A DNA stretch of 64,000 nucleotides, from positions 32,001 to 96,000 of the forward strand of contig CBDCYI010000004.1 of NCBI GenBank assembly GCA_965224085.1. The letters run 5' to 3'. This stretch comes from Candidatus Marinacidobacterales bacterium (lineage in GTDB: Bacteria; Acidobacteriota; Vicinamibacteria; Marinacidobacterales; SMYC01). The notes beneath the pieces are model-generated. The model saw only the letters and a program-made list of their open reading frames with translations, did no database searches and had not been told where the DNA came from. Below are positions 1-32,420 of this stretch, one piece after another. The position numbers and the translations under genes are program-made. The stretch's first letter is position 1. Each line of letters opens with the position of its first letter.

Positions 1-248
1 AACACCAACTCAAAATGACCTTCGAGCACATGCCACACCGGCTTCCAATACACTCCGGTCGCTTCCATCGCTACAATCGTGCAACCGCACTGCCCCAGCC
101 AATCCAACATTTCCAGCAATTCGCTCGTGGCCGTGCCGAACACACGCGTCTCGCGCACCACCTTCCGCTTCGACGCTACCCGCACGCAAGCCGTAATCGA
201 TTTCTGGTGGACGTCCAATCCGGCGCATCGCTTATGAACCACTCTCAT
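1..248 (-). CDS. IS110-family transposase, N-terminal part (runs off window edge; not in ORF track)
   Basis: Minus strand from ATG 248 reads MRVVHKRCAGLDVHQKSITACVR...VAMEATGVYWKPVWHVLE, the DEDD_Tnp_IS110 GLD/MEATG motifs; RBS GAAGGAGG upstream. Confidence 0.9.
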   Translation of the reverse strand, partial: MRVVHKRCAGLDVHQKSITACVRVASKRKVVRETRVFGTATSELLEMLDWLGQCGCTIVAMEATGVYWKPVWHVLEGHFELV

Positions 249-479
249 CGCAGCCTCCTTCACGTCGCACCGGCGTGGAGCCCACGAACTTGTAATCTAA
301 TAGACGCGCTCAACTATCCCAGCTGGAATAGAAAACGCAATTTGGGGTACGCGCAGGACTCCCAGCCAAACTTGACAACGGGCTCAGTCGCACCAACGTT
401 AAGCCGACCTCTGAGCCGGTGCCACCTTCACAGACTACCGCGTTTCATTTATTCGGGGTGACCGCCAGGCCGTGGAAAA
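249..479 (-). ncRNA. Non-coding left end of IS110 element, putative bridge RNA region
   Basis: ~230 bp non-coding region upstream of transposase; internal GTTGTCAAGT (379->370) repeats the flanking ATTGTCAAGT (488->479). Confidence 0.6.
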
Positions 480-777
480 CTTGACAATAACCGCGTCGAC
501 CATGGCGGAAGCTGCATGTAGGCGACGGCGACTCCTCTGCCGCAGGCTCGCCGAAGGTCACGACGGTTTGATCTCGAAGGCCGCATCGATGCCAGCGAAT
601 GCGAAGACTCTGGTCGCGTTCGCGGAGAGGGTCTGTCTCATTTTCTGAAGGGACACACCTCGCGCGACAGCCAGTCGCTCGGCTGTTGTGGTGGCATGCC
701 CTGCTCCGCCTATCGCGGAGCGCCATTGGCCGAGTCACGACCAAGAGGACAACGATGGAGCCTGATCAGAAGCCTGC

Positions 778-1548
778 ATGCAGTGCACCCTCAAGCGCGT
801 CTGGTCAAAATACTCGAACGCCCATCACCGCGAGAGGAATCATCAAGCCAAAGAGCTTCAAGCCGACGAGATTCGCACGTTCGCGGGCAACAAGAAGACG
901 CCGAGTTGGGTCTTCGTTACGATCGAGGTCTGGTCTCGGCTCTGGCCATCGACGGTGACGGGAAGGCGAAGCTACCGGAACACTCACGCTCTGTTTCGCG
1001 ACCTTTCGAAGCGGATGAATTTCGGACGTCTTCCCCTGATCGTCACGGATGGATTCGAATTCTACCAGAAGGTCATCCGTCGCTTCTTCGGTCCAGCGTA
1101 TCTTTACGGCCAGGTCCTCAAGACGCGCAGGAACGGTCGTATCATCAAGGTCGAACGGAGAGCGCTGCACGGAGCCGCGTGGCGATTCGAAGACGCGCTC
1201 AATAACTCCGAGGACTCCTCAACATTGAACACGTCGTTCATCGAGCGGTTAAATCTGACCATCCGGCAAAGCTTGGCATACCTTTCGAGACGAACGCTTT
1301 CCCACGCTCGCTCGACGGAGAGGCTCGATGAGCACATGGAATTGCTCCGTTGCTATTACAACTTCGTCCGACCGCACGGAGCTCTGAAGTTCGGACGTGA
1401 GATCCGAACTCCGGCTATGCAGGCCGGTCTGACCACGCGACGGCTCACCTTTCGAGACATCTTCTTGGCGACGACGATTCCTTTGTGGCTGCGGATCGAG
1501 GTTTTCCTGCTCACTGGGGCGCGCCAACCCGGTCTCTTCCGCACCTGA
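778..1548 (+). CDS. IS1-family-like DDE transposase (5' part degenerate)
   Basis: LQADEIRTF, IVTDGF, TSFIERLNLTIRQ, YNFVRPH, TPAMQAGL motifs. Confidence 0.75.
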   Translation: MQCTLKRVWSKYSNAHHRERNHQAKELQADEIRTFAGNKKTPSWVFVTIEVWSRLWPSTVTGRRSYRNTHALFRDLSKRMNFGRLPLIVTDGFEFYQKVIRRFFGPAYLYGQVLKTRRNGRIIKVERRALHGAAWRFEDALNNSEDSSTLNTSFIERLNLTIRQSLAYLSRRTLSHARSTERLDEHMELLRCYYNFVRPHGALKFGREIRTPAMQAGLTTRRLTFRDIFLATTIPLWLRIEVFLLTGARQPGLFRT

Positions 1549-1575
1549 ACCACTGCCCGCAGCCGCGTAGCAACA

Positions 1576-1875
1576 TATCTGGACTCCTCAATCAACACCT
1601 TTCTCAAAAAAGTCTTCCTCAGAGCTGCTCGTCCAAATCGGTGACGAGTGGGTCAGACTGCAAACATATCTACGGCCTCAGTGAGGAGCGTCTTGGGTGC
1701 TCCGGGCCATGACGGAAAATCCGCGCGCGAGGAGCCAATCACTTTGAGCGACCTCTGAGGGCCAGTGTTGCTATCGGCTTGACCCCGCGCCGGTCCGACC
1801 GGTACGCCATCAGTTGGAAGGGTATCGTCGCAGCCTCTGTTGGAAGGGAAGAAGGAAAACACGAGAGTGGAGCCT
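1576..1875 (-). ncRNA. IS1111 3' non-coding region, putative seek/bridge RNA
   Basis: Segments match the target (1764-1773, 1740-1744) and the predicted donor junction (1710-1717, 1665-1671). Confidence 0.75.
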
Positions 1876-2910
1876 CTATGCGGCCGCGGGCACCGACTGG
1901 AATTCACTCTCGCGGGTGGAGACGGCCCAGACTATCCGGGCGAGTTTGTTGGCGACAGCAATCGCGGCTTTGTTGTGTCCCCGCGAGCGGTGGACCTTCC
2001 GCGCCCAGGCGCGGAGCTTGTCGGGCGGGCTCTTGCTGACGTTGGCCGCTCGGAGCACGGCGCGTCCGCCCTGCGTGAGGAGCGTACGGAGGTAGGAGTC
2101 GCCACGCTTGGTGATGCGCCCGAGGCGGCGAATGTCACCACTGGAGTTCTCTTTGGGAACGAGGCCGAGGTAACTCGAGAAGCGGCGTCCCGATGGGAAG
2201 CGGCGCAGATCCCCAACGAAGCCGACGATGGCGGTCGCGGTCAAAAGTCCGATGCCGGGAATGGTGAGAAGTCGTTGCACCTCAGGAAGCTGCTTGGCGA
2301 GCGCCTTGAGCTCGTGCTCGATGCCAGCGCACTTGTCCTTGAGCTCTCGAATCTCGGAGCACGCATCACGCAGGTGCGGACGGAGCACGTCGGGCAAATC
2401 AGAATCAGCGTCTTCGACGAGCTCGGAGATGGCGGGCACGACGAAGTGAGCGCCCTTGGGGATGAAGAGTCCGAGCTCGCGCAGGACCCCGCGTACGGCA
2501 TTGATGCGTGCGGTTCGTGTGGAGAGCCATCCTGAGCGTAGGCGATGGAGCGCGGCGAGGGTGTGCTGGCGCACGGACTTGATGGGCACCGAAAGAATCT
2601 CCTCGTTCCGGTAAGCCTCGAGCAAAGCTTTGGTGTCCGCGCGGTCGTTCTTGCTCCCGCGTCGATACGGCCTTACGAGGTGAGGTGGGAGCAGGACGAC
2701 GTCGTGTCCCAACCGTCGCAACGTCCTTGCCCAAAAGTGAGCCGAGCCGCAGGCTTCGAGAAGCACGGTGGCAGCGCTCTGTTTCGCAAAAAACGACACC
2801 AACTTGGGTCGACTCACACGGAGTTGCTTGGACACCTTCCCCGCTTCGCGCGAGATGGCAATCTCGAAGACGTTCTTTGCAAGACCCACAGCGATCGTCG
2901 TATCTTTCAT
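1876..2910 (-). CDS. IS110/IS1111 transposase (first catalytic Asp reads Gly in this copy)
   Basis: IAV(G)LAKNVF, LEACGSAHFW, KNDRAD, IPGIG, GLVPKENSSG, AVANKLARI; start MKDTT after GGAG. Confidence 0.92.
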   Translation of the reverse strand: MKDTTIAVGLAKNVFEIAISREAGKVSKQLRVSRPKLVSFFAKQSAATVLLEACGSAHFWARTLRRLGHDVVLLPPHLVRPYRRGSKNDRADTKALLEAYRNEEILSVPIKSVRQHTLAALHRLRSGWLSTRTARINAVRGVLRELGLFIPKGAHFVVPAISELVEDADSDLPDVLRPHLRDACSEIRELKDKCAGIEHELKALAKQLPEVQRLLTIPGIGLLTATAIVGFVGDLRRFPSGRRFSSYLGLVPKENSSGDIRRLGRITKRGDSYLRTLLTQGGRAVLRAANVSKSPPDKLRAWARKVHRSRGHNKAAIAVANKLARIVWAVSTRESEFQSVPAAA

Positions 2911-3014
2911 TCGGACTCCTCCTTTTTCGATGCGTTCTTTCGACTGACTTTGGCACATCGATGCCGTCTATGTCAGCGGAGGAGTCCATCCCATCACTTG
3001 ATGGCGGAAGCACC

Positions 3015-3202
3015 CAGCGAGGAGTCCGCGGTCGCTTTGCTGTTTGGGCTTATCGCCTCTGGCCAGATTCAACTACGACGCATCGACGGCTACCAACGTC
3101 TGAGCGAGGTTCTCGAACACGCGGAGGTTGCCGCCTGATATGATACTCTGATGACGGAGTAGAGGGTGCTGTTCTTTTTCCACGGACCTCGGGACACATC
3201 CC
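3015..3202 (+). pseudogene. 3' remnant of a transposase (IS256-like) plus end
   Basis: ...LLFGLIASGQIQLRRIDGYQ...AA* followed by TTCCAC...CGGGACACATCC terminus-like sequence. Confidence 0.5.
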
Positions 3203-3487
3203 AAAAACTAGGCCCTTTTGAAATAGACCATGAATCAGCAGCTTAGTGTCTGTGTTTGCGCCCGGGCCAAGGGCCTAGCTCTGCTCCATGGTTGTCGCGG
3301 GCCCCACCGTCCACGCTGCATCGACTGTTCGCTTGTAATGTTGCCAGTGAATCAAGTTTTGGCACAGGACGCCGGGGTCCCGGTACGCCGTGGTACCCGC
3401 ACCGATCCGCGTGATATATTCTTGGGTCCGGAAACCGATGCAACGTGTCCACGGAGTTGAGAAAGGCCAAGAACTTGGGAGGTTTCA

Positions 3488-4078
3488 ATGAAAGACAATA
3501 GAATGATTGCCGAGTTGATATCGGAGTTTGTAGCACAGTTGGAGAAGCAGCTGCATGAGCTAAATTCACGAATTACTACTGTTCTTGCTGAGCCGGAGGC
3601 TTCTGAACCGGAGGCTGCCGAGCCAGAGGCTGCCGAGCCAGAGGCTTCTGAGCCAGAGGCTGCTGAGCCGGAGGCTGCTGAACCGGAGGCTGCCGAGCCA
3701 GAGGCTTCTGAGCCAGAGGCTGCTGAGCCGGAGGCTGCTGAACCGGAGGCTTCTGAGCCAGAGGTTGCTGAGCCAGAGGCTGCTGAGCCGGAGGCTGCTG
3801 AGCCGGAGGCTGCTGAGCCGGAGGCTGCTGAGCCGGAGACTTCTGAGCCGGAGGCTGCTGAGCCGGAGGCTGCTGAGCCGGAGGCTGCTGAGCCGGAGGC
3901 TGCTGAGCCGGAGGCTGCTGAGCCGGAGACTTCTGAGCCGGAGGCTGCTGAGCCGGAGACTTCTGAGCCGGAGGCTGCTGAGCCGGAGGCTGCTGAGCCG
4001 GAGACTTCTGAGCCAGAGACTTCTGAGCCAGAGGTAGACGATGGCGATTCGCAATCCCAGGAAGACCGCGCAAAGTAA
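3488..4078 (+). CDS. Acidic pentapeptide-repeat protein, (EPEAA)x30
   Basis: GGAGG RBS, 34-aa helical N-terminus, 30 EPE(A/T/V)(A/S/D) units, C-terminus [12 protein letters not shown]. Confidence 0.7.
3590..4039 (+). repeat. 15-bp coding tandem repeat GAGCCGGAGGCTGCT, 30 units
   Basis: Read directly from sequence. Confidence 0.97.
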
Positions 4079-4119
4079 TGGACGGCAATAGAACTGAGAC
4101 AGGGGATAGGCGTTAGTGC

Positions 4120-4701
4120 ATGAAACCTGTGATCCGCAAAAAAGAAGATCGCGTGCCGCCTGGATCGACTTTTTGCGGAGCACAGGAGGTGCCAACGGGC
4201 GAGGGAGATGTTGGCGAACGGGTTGCTACCCTTGAACAGTCCTTCGCCAGCGAGTCGATGATGCACCACTACAACCTATCGACGCGCCACGTGTTCCAGA
4301 CGCGACGCTCGGATATTCGCTCCGAGACGTTGGCTGCGTTGCAGTCCAACATCGAGGTGGCCACCAGCGGGCAAGCGGTGCCGTTACCCGGATTCCCCGA
4401 ATACTTTCTAAGCATCAGGAACACCTGGGTCGGCGCAGTGGGGTGGCTCATCCAGGGACCCGAGCACCGGGTCATGGTTCAGTGCGTGACAGCCTGGACG
4501 ATTGAGGGCGCAGCAAAGGGCGTGCGCTGGTTGGGGGCGGAGCTACCGGAGGAGTTGGACTTGCCTTGTTGTCTGGTCAAGCTTGGACTACCCCTGCTTA
4601 AGGATCCCGGTGCGGCAAGTTGGCTTGATGATGCCGAGCGGTGCATTAGCTGGGCGATGCTACCCACGCCTCCTCTTGGCAATGGCACAGGGTCGCCCTG
4701 A
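4120..4701 (+). CDS. Hypothetical ORF whose N-terminus is encoded by the MITE (probably a gene fragment)
   Basis: 193-aa ORF; first ~22 codons overlap repeat 4128-4184. Confidence 0.3.
   Translation: MKPVIRKKEDRVPPGSTFCGAQEVPTGEGDVGERVATLEQSFASESMMHHYNLSTRHVFQTRRSDIRSETLAALQSNIEVATSGQAVPLPGFPEYFLSIRNTWVGAVGWLIQGPEHRVMVQCVTAWTIEGAAKGVRWLGAELPEELDLPCCLVKLGLPLLKDPGAASWLDDAERCISWAMLPTPPLGNGTGSP
4128..4184 (+). repeat. MITE family A, short 57-bp variant
   Basis: TGTGATCCGCAAAAAAG...CTTTTTGCGGAGCACA inverted termini. Confidence 0.85.
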
Positions 4702-5182
4702 TAGGTGTATCGAGGCGCTAACCCTTGGAAGACGAGTCATAGGGGTAGACGTTAACCCTAATTGCAAATAAACGTCACCGTGTCTGAGGTCTTTGGCCCC
4801 GTGAATAGCACCTTTTCCAGGTTCTGCATACACCGTGCAGAATCACCTATAGTGGCGGCGAGCGGGTGCCCCAGCACGAGCTTCTCGCCTGCGCCCAGTG
4901 CGGCTGTTTCGCGTTTTCGTGCTTCGAAGATTTTGCGATTAGGGTTAATTCTCTCGCGCACTTCGTAGCAAGGACCCGGACCACGCCATGTCCGCGACAG
5001 ATCAGGACGCGATTCTCTCGTGGGCATCCAAAACAAAGGATCGACTTTCCGTCTCCGACGTAAGCTGGGTGTCGGTCCCACGTATTAAGAATCTGCCACC
5101 TCCTGTCGAGACTTTTCTCGCCGGCGCACTAGCCTTGTCTAAGCGTCTCAAGTTTCAACGCCAGCAAGACTTTGCCCGCTGC

Positions 5183-5897
5183 GCTCCCCTGAGGGAATGT
5201 GTGCCACTCTTAGTTGAAATTTGAAACGGCTCCCTCTCGGGTGGTTTGATGACGTTGTCAAAAGCGAAATCAAGCCGCTCAAGAAAGGAGCCGATATGGG
5301 AAGTCTGCTACGAAGGGTCAAGGAACGCAAGAAGACGCGTCGTCTAGGTGAAGTAGAGGTCATGGAGCAAGAGGGATACGGGGAGCTCGAGGTGGACTCG
5401 AAGGTCGAGATGATCCGCGCACTGGTGCCTCTCGGCCTGATGCATGTTCACGAGTTGCTGGACGCCGAGGTCAGTGAGCTTGCGGGAGAGCGATACGTTC
5501 GGAAATCGGAGACGGTGCAGGGACGACGTCACGGGACGAATCCGGGCACGGTGAACTCGCGGGTCAGCGAGTTCCGGTCCGCGGTCCCCGTGTTCGCGGC
5601 CGCGACGGAGAGATCCCGTTGAACTCGTACGAGAGTCTGAGTCACCGCGGAGAGGTGGACGAGTTGCTTCTACGAAGAGTGCTGTACGGGATCTCGTGCC
5701 GGAACTATGAGTCGGCGGCGGAATTGGTTCCGGGCGCGATCGGTCTGTCGAGTTCGTCGGTGTCGCGCGGCTTCGTCGAAGCAAGCGCAGCGAAGCTGCG
5801 TGAGATGCAGGAGCGTGATCTCTCGGGTGAGGACGTGGTGGCGATGGTCCTGTACGGCAAGACGTTCGCCGACGCGACGATGGTGGTGGCTCTCGGC
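5183..5897 (+). pseudogene. IS256-family transposase, frameshifted and 3'-truncated
   Basis: LLDAEVSELAGERY...RHGTNPG then GISCRNY...SSSSVSR...ERDLS in another frame. Confidence 0.75.
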
Positions 5898-5977
5898 GGT
5901 ACTGTCAAGTTTTCCACGGCTTGACGGCCACCCCGAATGAATGAAACGCGTTAGTCTCTGGAGGTGGCACCGGCTCA
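5898..5977 (+). repeat. Diverged partial copy of the IS110 left end at ~412-492, with its flank
   Basis: TGTCAAGTTTTCCACGGC..CACCCCGAAT.AATGAAACGCG.TAGTCT.TG.AGGTGGCACCGGCTCA shared. Confidence 0.9.
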
Positions 5978-6407
5978 ACACGACGCCTGAGGGAGCTCGG
6001 GTTTGGCGTCACTGCCCCAGAGGTGTGATGAGCTCGTTGCCGAGACCTTGGTGGTTCCGTTCTGCGTGATAGTGCTCGGCAACACAGTGCCCACAATCGC
6101 GAGTTTCTTGAACTCCACTATCCTTGGCATCCGCTCCACGGACGTAGGATTCTCGTCCGCGGCCGGCGAAAGTGGGGCAAGCACACAGCCGTTCGCTTCA
6201 CGGTAGAAGACGAACCGCAACGAGTCTGGACCGAACTTCCGGTCTGGATGTTTGACCGTGCCGTCTGTTCACGGATGCGTTTGACTGGCCGACCCCGCGT
6301 TCATTGGAAAGCCTTGGTAGAACTTAGGCAACTGCTGGACGAGACGGTGTGTGCGCCTCCGTTGGCAAGGGTACAAGATCAGCATCGTTGTTCGAACGTA
6401 GAAGGAG

Positions 6408-6605
6408 GTGCTGATGAAGGCGATACATCGATTTCGTCGAGCGGAGCAACTTCGGTTTTTCGATCGAAACAGAGTTCTCCCCCTGTGGAGCAGTCTTGCG
6501 GAAGACGTCAGGCAAGCGGTAACTCGATTGACGGCGGAGATGCTCCGTGAGCACTGGGCAACAAAATCCACGAACGAAGTAGAGAGGAGGACAAAGGATG
6601 AGTGA
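6408..6605 (+). CDS. Small hypothetical protein overlapping recombinase start
   Basis: Short ORF overlapping the recombinase ATG by 8 nt. Confidence 0.4.
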   Translation: MLMKAIHRFRRAEQLRFFDRNRVLPLWSSLAEDVRQAVTRLTAEMLREHWATKSTNEVERRTKDE

Positions 6606-8769
6606 GAAGATCAGAAAGCAACACCTCGCACGTAAAGCTGTTCTTTATGTTCGGCAATCCTCCCCCCATCAGGTTGCCCGTAACGAAGAGAGCCGACGGC
6701 TCCAATACGCCATGGAGGACCGACTCAAGGAACTCGGCTGGGAGGAAGTCGAGGTCGTTGACGAGGACCTCGGCCGCTCAGCGGCTGGTGGGACGCACCG
6801 TAGCGGGTTTGAAGGTATGGTGGCCGAAGTGTGCCTAGGCAAAGTCGGTGCGGTAGCCGCCCGGGAAGTATCACGCTTCGCTCGAAACAGTCGGGATTGG
6901 CAGAAGCTGGTGGAAGTGTGTCGAGTGGTCGACACTCTTCTTATCGATCAGGAGACGATCTACGATTCTCGCCGCGGTAACGACAGGTTGCTTCTAGGAT
7001 TGAAAGGCAGTCTCAACGAATACGAGCTCGATATCCTAAGGCTTCGCGCCGTAGAGGCTCGTCACGAGAAGGCGCGACGTGGAGAGTTGGTCGTCATAAG
7101 GTCTGCTGGCTATATCACGACCGACGAAGGCATCGTGAAGGAGCCAGACCGCCGTGTCCAGCGGACCATAGGATTAGTGTTCCAAAAGTTTCTCGAGCTT
7201 GGCTCAGCCCGCCAAACCTTGCTGTGGTTCATCGAGCACGGTTTAGAAATCCCTGTGCGCGAGTATGGCACAACGGGCTGGGAGACCGTATGGAAACGCC
7301 CCACCTACCAGCTGGTAATACGAATTTTGCAGGACCCGATCCACGCGGGCGCCTACACCTACGGCAAGACCGAAGTAACGACTGAGTTTGAGAGTGGAGT
7401 CGCTCGCAAGAAAATCAGGCGAAAACCGAAAGAAGAGTGGCTTGCTTTGCTCTACGATCACCATGAGAGCTATATTGCTCGCGAAGAGTTTGAGCGGATC
7501 CAAGAGATGATCTCAAACAACGCTCAATGGCCGAACGGCCCTGGACCTGGAGCAGCAAAAAAGGGGCGAGCGCTCCTGTCGGGCTTGCTGCGGTGCGGGC
7601 GTTGCGGCCGCAAGCTGATGGTGGTCTACACGGATCCATCTCAAACAACGCTCAATGGCCGAACGGCCCTGGACCTGGAGCAGCAAAAAAGGGGCGAGCG
7701 CTCCTGTCGGGCTTGCTGCGGTGCGGGCGTTGCGGCCGCAAGCTGATGTGTGGTCGGGGAGCGCTGAACAATGCGGAAGCTCGTTGTATCAGTTTCGGAA
7801 GTCAGCCAGTAGACGATGCTGTAGCCGGTGAAGTGCTCCGGGTGATCGAGCCTGGTGCCATAGAGGCAGCGATGCTCGCACAGCGAGAAGTTGCTTGCGA
7901 GCAGGATGACGTCGTCGAAGCGCTGCGTCTGGACCTCGAGGCAGCACGCTACACAGCGGAGCGCTCTTGGAAACAATACGATACCGCTGACCCAGCAAAC
8001 CGCCTGGTGGTTGATGAGCTGGAAAGACGGTGGAATATCGCACTCGAAACATTTCAAGAGCTCGAAGATAGGATCACGCAACAGGAAGCTCAGCGAAAGC
8101 AAGTGGTGGCGCCGGACCTGAAGGTTTTCGAACAGCTAGCCGAAGATCTCGGTCGCGTATGGAGTGATCCAGAGACGGACGTCCGGCTGAAGAAACGCAT
8201 CGTTCGTGCGCTGATTGAAGAGGTGATTGTCGACATCGACCGAACAATCGGTGAAACCTCACTCGTGATTCATTGGAAAGGCGGCACGCACAATGAATTG
8301 CGCGTACCGATTCGTCGCCGCGGGCAAAACAGTCTCCATACGTCAAAGGACATCGTCGATGCGGTACGAACTCTGACGCTGGTTTGTACTGATGATGTCG
8401 TAGCAGCTTACCTGAACCGTAACGGCCTACTCACCGGTCGTGGAAACCGCTGGACCCGAGAGAGAGTTGTTTCCCTTCGAAATAAGCGCGGGATCGCTAA
8501 GTATTCACCCCGACGGCAAGAGGCAGAAGGCTGGATGACCCTAACTCAAGCGGCCGCCTATCTTGGCGTCTCTGGCAGCGCCCTCCGGCACAGGGTCGAA
8601 CGAGGTGAGCTGAAAGCCATGCATCCCGCTGCCTGATGGACCTTGGGTTCTTAATAGGCAACAACTTGATCAACCGGGTGTTCGCAAGGTTATCGAGAGG
8701 ATCCGTCAGAATCGGAACCCCGCATCGCAATCACTCGAACAACGAACCCTTTTTGAAACAACAACATGA
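6598..8769 (+). pseudogene. Large serine recombinase, disrupted (111-bp duplication; frameshift near 8625)
   Basis: YVRQSS catalytic motif, EDLGRS, EVSRFARN, LLSGLLRCGRCGRKLM zinc ribbon, coiled coil; split over ORFs 6598-7746 and 7527-8636. Confidence 0.88.
7510..7748 (+). repeat. Perfect 111-bp direct repeat (7510-7620, 7638-7748)
   Basis: Identical ATCTCAAAC...AAGCTGATG blocks 17 bp apart. Confidence 0.95.
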
Positions 8770-31935: not shown

Positions 31936-32105
31936 CCGACCCCACCGTCCACGCCGCGTCAACTGCTCGCTTGTAACGTTGCCAGTAGATCAAGTTTCGG
32001 CACAGGACGCCACCATCTTGGGCGTTGGTCAGCCGAGTTTTAATTAACTTGACAACACCTGCGAGAAGACTTTCCGGCCCCGATGACGCCTGCGTCAGAG
32101 AGACT

Positions 32106-32420
32106 TCAGTCTCTCGCTACCGCGAACAGACTCTTAACCGCTACGACCAACGTGCCCACCATGAAGATCACGAGATTCGCGATGATCCGGGTCACCAGCT
32201 CTCCGATGTAGGGGATCGCTCCGACGGCGTTTGCCGCTACGATCAACGCTATCGCTGCTAAGAGGAAAGTCTGCCTCTCCTTGTCACTGATATTCAAGAA
32301 TCCGACGATCAGGCCGAGCACTGCGAGTACCCAGCCAAACCAGGCCTGTTCAAAGCCTAAGCCTCCGGCCACAGCTATCACTAGTCCAACGATAAAAGCG
32401 CCCTTGCCCACTAGCACCAT
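32106..32420 (-). CDS. Small membrane protein
   Basis: GGAGGGAG RBS; four TM segments; GFLNISDKE. Confidence 0.75.
   Translation of the reverse strand: MVLVGKGAFIVGLVIAVAGGLGFEQAWFGWVLAVLGLIVGFLNISDKERQTFLLAAIALIVAANAVGAIPYIGELVTRIIANLVIFMVGTLVVAVKSLFAVARD

Follow-up and report, generated by a model that had tools for sequence, protein, structure and literature searches.

A defective IS110-family copy whose leader very probably encodes a two-domain guide RNA directed to the tips of IS6-family elements

The 64,000-nt stretch of DNA analyzed here, called the window below (G000:C4:32001-96000), opens inside an insertion sequence, and the locus raises the question of what the long non-coding leader of this element encodes and what sets the place where the element inserts. 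A preliminary description of the same DNA had read two short segments of the leader as guides for an IS110-type recombinase and had proposed that the element homes on the ends of other insertion sequences. Our answer, which we hold to be very probable, is that the window starts with a defective IS110 copy carrying a two-domain bridge (seek) RNA with guides to TGTCA-AG-TT, and that the tips of IS6 elements are its main home. The first 6 kb of the window are a mosaic of mobile-element pieces; an open frame at 778-1548 (plus strand) has a marginal match to an IS1-type transposase (PF03400, 26.1 bits against a cut-off of 24.1). The parts of the element and of its insertion site that lie at the start of the window are as follows.

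1 to 479, minus strand: edge copy, the left part of an IS110-family element, with the left end from base 479 and the first 82 codons.
3 to 248, minus strand: recombinase gene, the part from the ATG at 248-246 that encodes residues 1-82 of 412.
442 to 446, minus strand: GAAAC motif of the left end, inverted partner of the right-end GTTTC that stands just before 5 variable bases and AG.
480 to 492, minus strand: left insertion half-site, GGTTATTGTCAAG, the outer tip of an IS6-type terminal repeat, with the AG core at 481-480.

The remainder of the edge copy is outside the window, at G000:C4:30995-32000. The genome contains nine full copies of the element, each of 1483 bp and 98-100% alike, along with about 15 miniature derivatives, and the edge copy has matches of 100% or 98% to the eight other full copies. 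A 16-bp tandem duplication causes a frameshift after residue 327 of the edge copy, and its right end is without the last 11 nt; with these two defects, the copy is dead and unable to move.

The protein of the intact copies matches the Pfam families DEDD_Tnp_IS110 (98.5 bits) and Transposase_20 (83.2 bits), both above cut-off, as well as the NCBIfam model of IS110-family RNA-guided transposases (NF033542, 292.8 bits against a cut-off of 140), and the element at 1-479 is a member of the IS110 family. The 412-aa recombinase has the catalytic D, E, D and D residues plus the serine (serine 298), within the motifs GLDVH, MEATG, KSDISDA and HESAG at residues 10, 61, 96 and 296. Among solved structures, it has distant matches to IS621 (E 1.3e-10) and ISCro4 (E 6.4e-8). 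In the alignment with IS621, the ES of HESAG falls on an ES, and MEATG and KSDISDA fall on EATG and KTDTVDA within a weak N-terminal stretch; the first catalytic D (GLDVH) was judged solely from the Pfam match over residues 9-155.

The non-coding left end measures 231 nt before the ATG and the right end only 14 nt after the stop codon, the long left and short right ends that characterize the IS110 group. The termini are unlike each other and form no terminal inverted repeats. Elements of the IS1111 group have the guide region downstream of the gene and subterminal inverted repeats of 7-17 bp; here the guide region is upstream and the only inverted pair is the 5-bp GTTTC/GAAAC, so the element does not belong to that group. 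TGTCAAG precedes 21 of the 22 left ends, and TTATTAG followed by TT is found at the right end of 6 of the 8 full copies in which that end is present.

The word TGTCAAGTT occurs 99 times in the genome: 9 are internal guide copies, 22 are occupied left junctions and 68 are unoccupied, of which 31 are the left terminal repeat of an 872-bp IS6 element and 37 are elsewhere. This element is present in about 30 copies and has the ends GGTATTGTCAAGTTGACG and GGTACTTTCGAGTGAACG, with terminal repeats starting GG; the tip GGTATTGTCAAGTT starts its 31 unoccupied copies. The transposase that it encodes is of the IS6 family (PF13610, 130.4 bits; NF033587, 213.5 bits against a cut-off of 125), which bears out the earlier proposal that the IS110 element homes on IS6-family ends. 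The GG-NNN-TGT start presumably resembles the terminus of IS26. In the one copy of the IS6 element that was inspected by eye for an 8-bp target duplication, the flanks did not match.

All the strings on which the preliminary description was built are present in the window: GGCTTAAC at 405-398, GTTGTCAAG at 379-371 and the flank ATTGTCAAG at 488-480 (all on the minus strand), GGTACTGTCAAG at 5898-5909 (plus strand) and GGTGTTGTCAAGTTAA at 32059-32044 (minus strand). A 16-mer modelled on the IS6 tip and allowing up to 3 mismatches matches the window three times, against a mean of 0.27 in shuffled sequence (0 of 100 shuffles reached 3), and these matches are exactly the flank at 488-480, 5898-5909 and 32059-32044.

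Occupied sites have AG at both junctions, and the unoccupied IS6 tip has a single AG. When the two flanks of the full copies C4:171267 and C4:223788 are joined at AG, they rebuild the IS6 tip exactly; together with the existence of unoccupied sites, this assigns TGTCAAG to the target and not to the element, as had been proposed. Four further occupied sites are at a second TGTCAAGTT within variants of the 872-bp element. To the left of the 22 occupied sites we found GGTAT in 10 (with up to one mismatch), the context of the inner site in 4 and neither in 8. Because these 8 sites are without IS6-like bases, we take the 9-mer as the recognized word and IS6-type tips as its main carriers; the 9-mer is carried most often by the IS6 tip, which is not required. 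On the other side, the 16 readable right junctions have TT in 14 cases, TC in one and GG in one. Both insertions in the window are 12-13 bases inside an IS6-type tip, and it is because the 9-mer is the outer tip of the abundant IS6 terminal repeat and of related repeats that the element lands in other mobile elements. Guide and flank are both the same in an independent homologue, L101 (57% identity). In a Planctomycetota genome with four copies (L033-L036), the left flanks adjoin palindromic, REP-like repeats, so relatives use other repeat classes as targets.

Some copies form nested or head-to-tail pairs, one within the left junction of the other (L009:2983-3130, G000:C4:1724566-1724730 and C4:496070-496382), and the homologues L043, L072 and L088 show the same arrangement. 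The left junction of a resident copy is itself a target, as it retains the left target, the core and a TT like that of the usual right flank. Two copies in opposite orientation, 4.2 kb apart (C9:13669-15151 and C9:19402-20705), have identical 40-nt left flanks, as would result from an inverted duplication or from inversion between copies.

The leader was compared with those of related elements. With one genome scanned per species, 573 pattern matches were obtained, of which 550 encode a relative, and the homologue set consists of the best 80 of these 550 relatives, with 53-65% protein identity and hosts in the Acidobacteriota, Gemmatimonadota, Planctomycetota and Proteobacteria. The alignment holds 47 of the 56 distinct leaders with a placeable left junction, same-genome near-duplicates being left out, and its RNAalifold consensus defines the following elements in the edge copy.

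267 to 423, minus strand: putative bridge-type guide RNA gene, closed by helix P1 (422-415 with 274-267), from the consensus of 47 homologues.
364 to 409, minus strand: helix P2 (409-406 with 367-364), which closes the target loop; 99.5% paired.
379 to 395, minus strand: apical hairpin P3 (395-390 with 383-379), which sits between the two target guides; 98.7% paired.
277 to 362, minus strand: helix P4 (362-356 with 283-277), which closes the donor domain; 97.2% paired.

Over the 28 predicted pairs, 95.4% of the alignment cells are paired, against 86.1% in shuffled alignments and 33-50% in slid controls. Changes on both sides of a pair are found in 137 cells (39 shuffled, 14-36 slid) and affect 20 of the 28 pairs (10.8 shuffled, 8-15 slid), including all 7 pairs of helix P4. 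The leader has, then, a conserved fold with two guide-bearing loops, as is expected of a bridge or seek RNA. An Rfam scan of window positions 1-8000, with E values up to 1, returned no matching family. Two local helices near the loop (GCACC/GGTGC and GGCTCAG/CTGAGCC) were considered as well and were overturned by the alignment, which has the long-range P1 plus P2 and P3 in their place. In one homologue (L084:2223-2503), a tandem duplication of ~40 nt in the target loop takes in the right guide, the hairpin and the left guide, so that the target guides are doubled.

Within this fold, the guides of the edge copy are placed as follows.

396 to 405, minus strand: 5' side of the target loop, 8-10 variable bases with the right-target guide, of which UUAAC (402-398) lies opposite the core G and the right flank.
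371 to 378, minus strand: left-target guide, UUGUCAAG, on the first loop's 3' side and immediately preceded by the conserved GAGCCCG.
369 to 370, minus strand: extension of the left guide, UU, a copy of the first two bases of the element; guide and extension together span 369 to 378.
297 to 304, minus strand: left-donor guide, UCUAUUAG, which, if one base is skipped, agrees with TTATTAG, the right end of the element.

The left-target guide of the edge copy (UGUCAAG, within 378-371) is a sense copy of the left target together with the AG core. Among the homologues, 52 of 64 loci repeat their 7-mer, which ends in AG, at the left junction of their element; the different 7-mer of another locus stands there in 18 of 3924 cross-pairings, and the 40 distinct 7-mers change together with the flank. 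The column of the extension is 98% identical to the column of the second left-end base, which means that it copies the start of the element and not the right flank. A left-donor guide, which had gone unmatched in the preliminary description, has now been located in the second domain, directly after GAGC(A/G)CG: it is a variable 7-mer ending in AG, found at the own right end in 53 of 68 loci, compared with 61 of 4408 cross-pairings.

The string GGCUUAAC (405-398) is part of the right-target guide loop. A single fixed register gave a weak signal only and was replaced by one for which the base opposite the invariant core G was the sole criterion. In this way, 53 of 57 distinct loop/flank pairs could be assigned, 29 to one register and 24 to the other (L065, L079, L097 and L105 were dropped as unassignable). 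The first base of the right flank is complementary to the loop in 32 of 53 pairs (15.2 expected, 0 of 2000 permutations as high) and the second in 23 of 53 (14.3 expected, 11 of 2000 permutations as high), permutation counts that ignore relatedness and are not exact probabilities; past the second base, the 53 homologue pairs have no covariation with the loop. The data support the right-target guide at the core G and the next two bases only. Covariation is found, then, for the left-target, right-target and left-donor guides, and with it the earlier reading of the two leader segments as guides holds, the left guide covarying with the left flank and the loop with the right one. A right-donor guide was found neither by eye nor by mutual information against the first 22 columns of the left end, a test of little power here because the start of the left end is largely invariant. 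The candidate CGUGG at 286-282 turned out to be part of helix P4.

The core was first read as GT or TT, from the AGTT common to both junctions in this genome; we take AG as the core because multi-copy homologues share only AG between their left and right junctions. Left guides read like the top strand and the right guide is complementary to that strand, the core being included in the pairings. The complement of the top strand (402-398) stands 5' of the match to the bottom strand (378-371) in the edge copy and likewise in 47 of 47 aligned homologues, which is not the order of the IS621 or ISEc21 type. The 5-bp pair of the two ends also covaries among the homologues (for example, L072, L081, L086, L102, L105 and L073): GAAAC goes with GTTTC, GAAGC goes with GCTTC in six loci, and none of the 56 loci that show both motifs, out of 60 listed, is discordant. 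In L099, GAAAA goes with TTTTC.

Scans for a sigma-70-like promoter gave no sites in the leader or at the natural joint of right and left ends, so the earlier suggestion that TGTCAA is a reversed -35 box finds no support. In two metatranscriptome runs, contigs over the leader cover positions 1600-1839 and 1673-1860 of the locus L009 at a depth of 2.7-3.6. These low-depth contigs are insufficient to claim transcription because the flanking repeats are covered too, and they could be DNA carry-over in the RNA libraries. No circle junction was seen in the contigs of these two runs.

The second insertion in the window is one of the miniature derivatives.

5898 to 5909, plus strand: left half-site before the miniature derivative, GGTACTGTCAAG, with the core AG at 5908-5909.
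5910 to 6018, plus strand: miniature derivative, made up of bases 1-68 of the left end, counted in the element proper, and of right-end sequence without the right tip.

The preliminary description had listed a diverged left-end copy at 5898-5977; the copy is there, and instead of a stray fragment it is one of about 15 derivatives of ~147 bp, in which the first 75 nt of the left end run directly into the final ~72-80 nt of the right end. All have one common deletion joint, and their flanks differ from place to place (for example, at C11:397356, C5:692627 and C9:752072), which suggests that they may be mobilized in trans by the full copies. They retain both tips and the GAAAC/GTTTC pair and none of the guides. 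As they keep the unlike ends of the parent, they do not have the terminal inverted repeats of a MITE and are better called non-autonomous deletion derivatives. One full copy is inserted into the left junction of such a derivative. The gene broken at 5897, possibly that of an IS256-type transposase, has paralogues with a differing continuation right after CTCGGC, and for this reason the 12 bases before 5910 can be recognized as foreign to the interrupted gene and similar to an IS6 tip. The frames at 5221-5619 and 5619-5921 had no match in Pfam.

The third match to the IS6 tip is an uninterrupted site.

32027 to 32059, minus strand: unoccupied target site, with the core AG at 32049-32048; it agrees with the left guide at 9/9 bases and with the right guide over GTTAA.

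This site had been proposed as an empty target, and the comparison with the right flank of the edge copy agrees with it. The broken right end of the edge copy adjoins a 590-bp element of the IS200/IS605 family (NF033573, 158.7 bits) located at G000:C4:30404-30994 (L001:1-494), just before the start of the window, and represented by about 10 full copies and about 30 shorter relatives. Ten of 11 copies of it end in ...TCAGT, which leaves the right boundary ambiguous by one T, so that the flank past this element reads TAAGCAGAA or TTAAGCAGAA, followed by TCGGCTGACC. The flank was expected to begin with TTAAGCC or similar; it is TTAAGCA, with six of seven bases as expected, if the ambiguous T belongs to the flank, and TAAGCA with the other boundary. 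The empty site reads TTAATTAAAAC and then the same 10-mer, TCGGCTGACC, at an offset nearly equal to that of the edge flank. The 9-mer TCGGCTGAC has 64 matches in the genome, and only the empty site and the edge flank have GTTAA shortly upstream. From the shared 10-mer and this GTTAA unique to the two places, we take the empty site to be a paralogue of the edge copy's own target; the similarity between the two does not extend beyond ~35 nt. The small gene at 32109-32420 had no match in Pfam. As a side observation, four IS200/IS605 elements are located exactly at the right tip of an IS110 miniature or remnant and a fifth on the truncated right end of the edge copy; left flanks of the IS200/IS605 relatives end in TAG in 38 of 42 cases, and the IS110 right end finishes in TTAG, which explains these positions.

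The close agreement of the empty site with both guides gives weight to a different view of the target, in which the full 16-mer is the true one, the right guide pairs with 6-7 bases (GTTAAGC) and the insertions into IS6 tips are relaxed half-matches. We consider this unlikely, and it seems to us just as improbable that the natural home is a rare repeat of ~35 bp like that at 32059-32027. The empty site does match the left guide at 9/9 and the right guide at 5/5 bases and is paralogous to the site of the edge copy, and GCUUAAC could pair with seven straight bases of the edge flank if this flank is TTAAGCA; the place of the first T in the flank is, however, uncertain, given that ...TCAGT is the end of the intervening element in 10 of 11 copies. 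There is a preprint on half-match recombination, of which a part was available to us, yet the 53 homologue pairs have no covariation past the second base of the flank, only one of the nine full copies is in such a site and TTAAG is found at none of the 16 readable right junctions elsewhere. Of the 16-mer predicted in the preliminary description, the left half and the two bases after the core stand, and the rest of the right half does not hold in general, as 14 of 16 right junctions share only TT.

Two further explanations do away with the guides or with mobility. TGTCAAG could be the terminal sequence of the element itself, and its internal copy a second protein-binding site, with no RNA guide involved, which would account for its presence before 21 of 22 left ends and for the near-copy inside the element. 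We regard this as extremely improbable, given that 68 TGTCAAGTT sites have no element attached, 31 of them in one IS6 repeat, that this repeat continues exactly as the right flank of two occupied copies, and that the 7-mers of the homologues differ (40 distinct ones) and always change with the flank. It is also very unlikely that the family is immobile here, its copies and miniatures having spread passively through duplications carried by IS6 elements or recombination between repeats. The identical 40-nt left flanks of C9:15151 and C9:19402 and the truncation of several copies would fit passive spread, but the other seven full copies and ~15 miniatures differ in both flanks and are 98-100% alike, each is precisely at the same 9-mer, and a full copy is inserted into the left junction of a miniature.

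The reading that we prefer is that of an element led by a bridge RNA to TGTCA-AG-TT, and it would work as follows. The 231-nt non-coding left end would encode the two-domain bridge (seek) RNA. In the loop of the first domain, the right-target guide AAC (possibly plus UU) on the 5' side would pair with the core G of the top strand and the bases that follow it, and the left-target guide UGUCAAG on the 3' side would pair with the bottom strand; in the second domain, UCUAUUAG matches the right end of the element itself. The recombinase (412 aa, DEDD plus serine) would be supplied by intact copies, and together with the RNA it would bring circular or joined ends of the element to TGTCA-AG-TT, where strands would be exchanged at AG. 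The present data show the membership in the family, the boundaries of the copies, the covariation of guides and flanks, the conservation of the fold and the contrast of occupied with empty sites; we infer the production of the RNA, its binding by the recombinase and the strand exchange at AG by analogy with IS621, ISEc21 and CazIS110-1.

It is possible, though we consider it rather doubtful, that these elements make up a large and widespread clade (550 relatives) with a guide-RNA architecture of its own, nested or tandem arrays and miniatures mobilized in trans. Its RNA would be encoded upstream as in IS110-type elements, with the target guides in the order of the IS1111 type and a fixed AG core; the left guide would be followed by two bases of the element's start, and the covarying 5-bp pair GTTTC/GAAAC would bracket the donor. 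The arrays would arise at the left junctions of resident copies, each of which the extension turns into a perfect new target, and the guide-less derivatives of 147 bp would be moved in trans. In the portions of the literature available to us, we found no paper on IS110 elements aimed at IS6/IS26 repeats and none on miniature IS110 derivatives, and the architecture described here may already be in the extended figures of PMC11208160.

The locus is a natural case, worked out in full, of an insertion sequence that is led by RNA into the terminal repeat of a different one, and because occupied and empty sites share one genome, the rules from guide to target can be read directly. The aligned set of about 50 related guide RNAs comes from a subgroup with recombinases of ~410 aa that has been little tested at the bench, and it offers 40 distinct left guides as cases of natural re-targeting, along with another core and short natural donors that have no cargo, which makes it useful for the engineering of bridge recombinases.

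Among the known systems, we compared the element with IS621, as described in the available portions of Durrant et al. 2024 (PMC11208160) and Hiraizumi et al. 2024 (PMC11208158), which place position 53 of its bridge RNA in the left guide and 74-82 in the right guide plus handshake bases. The two have in common a recombinase with DEDD and serine, a long non-coding left end, loops for target and donor, left guides in the sense of the top strand with a complementary right guide, a 2-nt core within the pairings and a right-target guide effective over ~2 bases past the core. However, the proteins are distant (E 1.3e-10, mostly over the C-terminal domain) and differ in length (412 residues here, 328 in IS621), the core is AG here and CT in IS621, and the right-target guide is 5' of the left-target guide here, the reverse of the order given there. 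Moreover, the left guide has here a 2-nt extension that copies the start of the element, and the right-donor guide is not recognized.

ISEc21 is also of the IS110 type, with a non-coding region upstream and a target inside another insertion sequence, namely a conserved part of the transposase genes of the IS3 family (Siddiquee et al. 2024, PMC11187229, in the part available to us). According to the same part of that paper, the match to the bottom strand comes first in ISEc21, whereas the complement of the top strand comes first here, the order reported for IS1111-type RNAs; the target here is a terminal repeat and in ISEc21 a coding stretch; and the 412-aa recombinase falls within the class of 395-455 aa of the subgroup that holds IS110 itself. 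IS4321 and IS5075, of the IS1111 group, target the terminal repeats of the Tn21 family, as cited in the available text of PMC11208160, and resemble our element in that they insert site-specifically into a terminal inverted repeat of other mobile elements; they differ in their downstream guide region, long subterminal repeats and other target family. CazIS110-1 (bioRxiv 10.1101/2025.10.25.684509) is, from the part of the preprint available, a multi-copy IS110 with loops described as pairing with the left and right junctions, and it has a long recombinase with the serine near residue 312 (298 here), a likeness by description. Homing into other mobile elements is, as far as the available portions of these sources go, already known (ISEc21; IS4321/IS5075), and the published bridge/seek RNA model fits the present element with the known mechanism unchanged.
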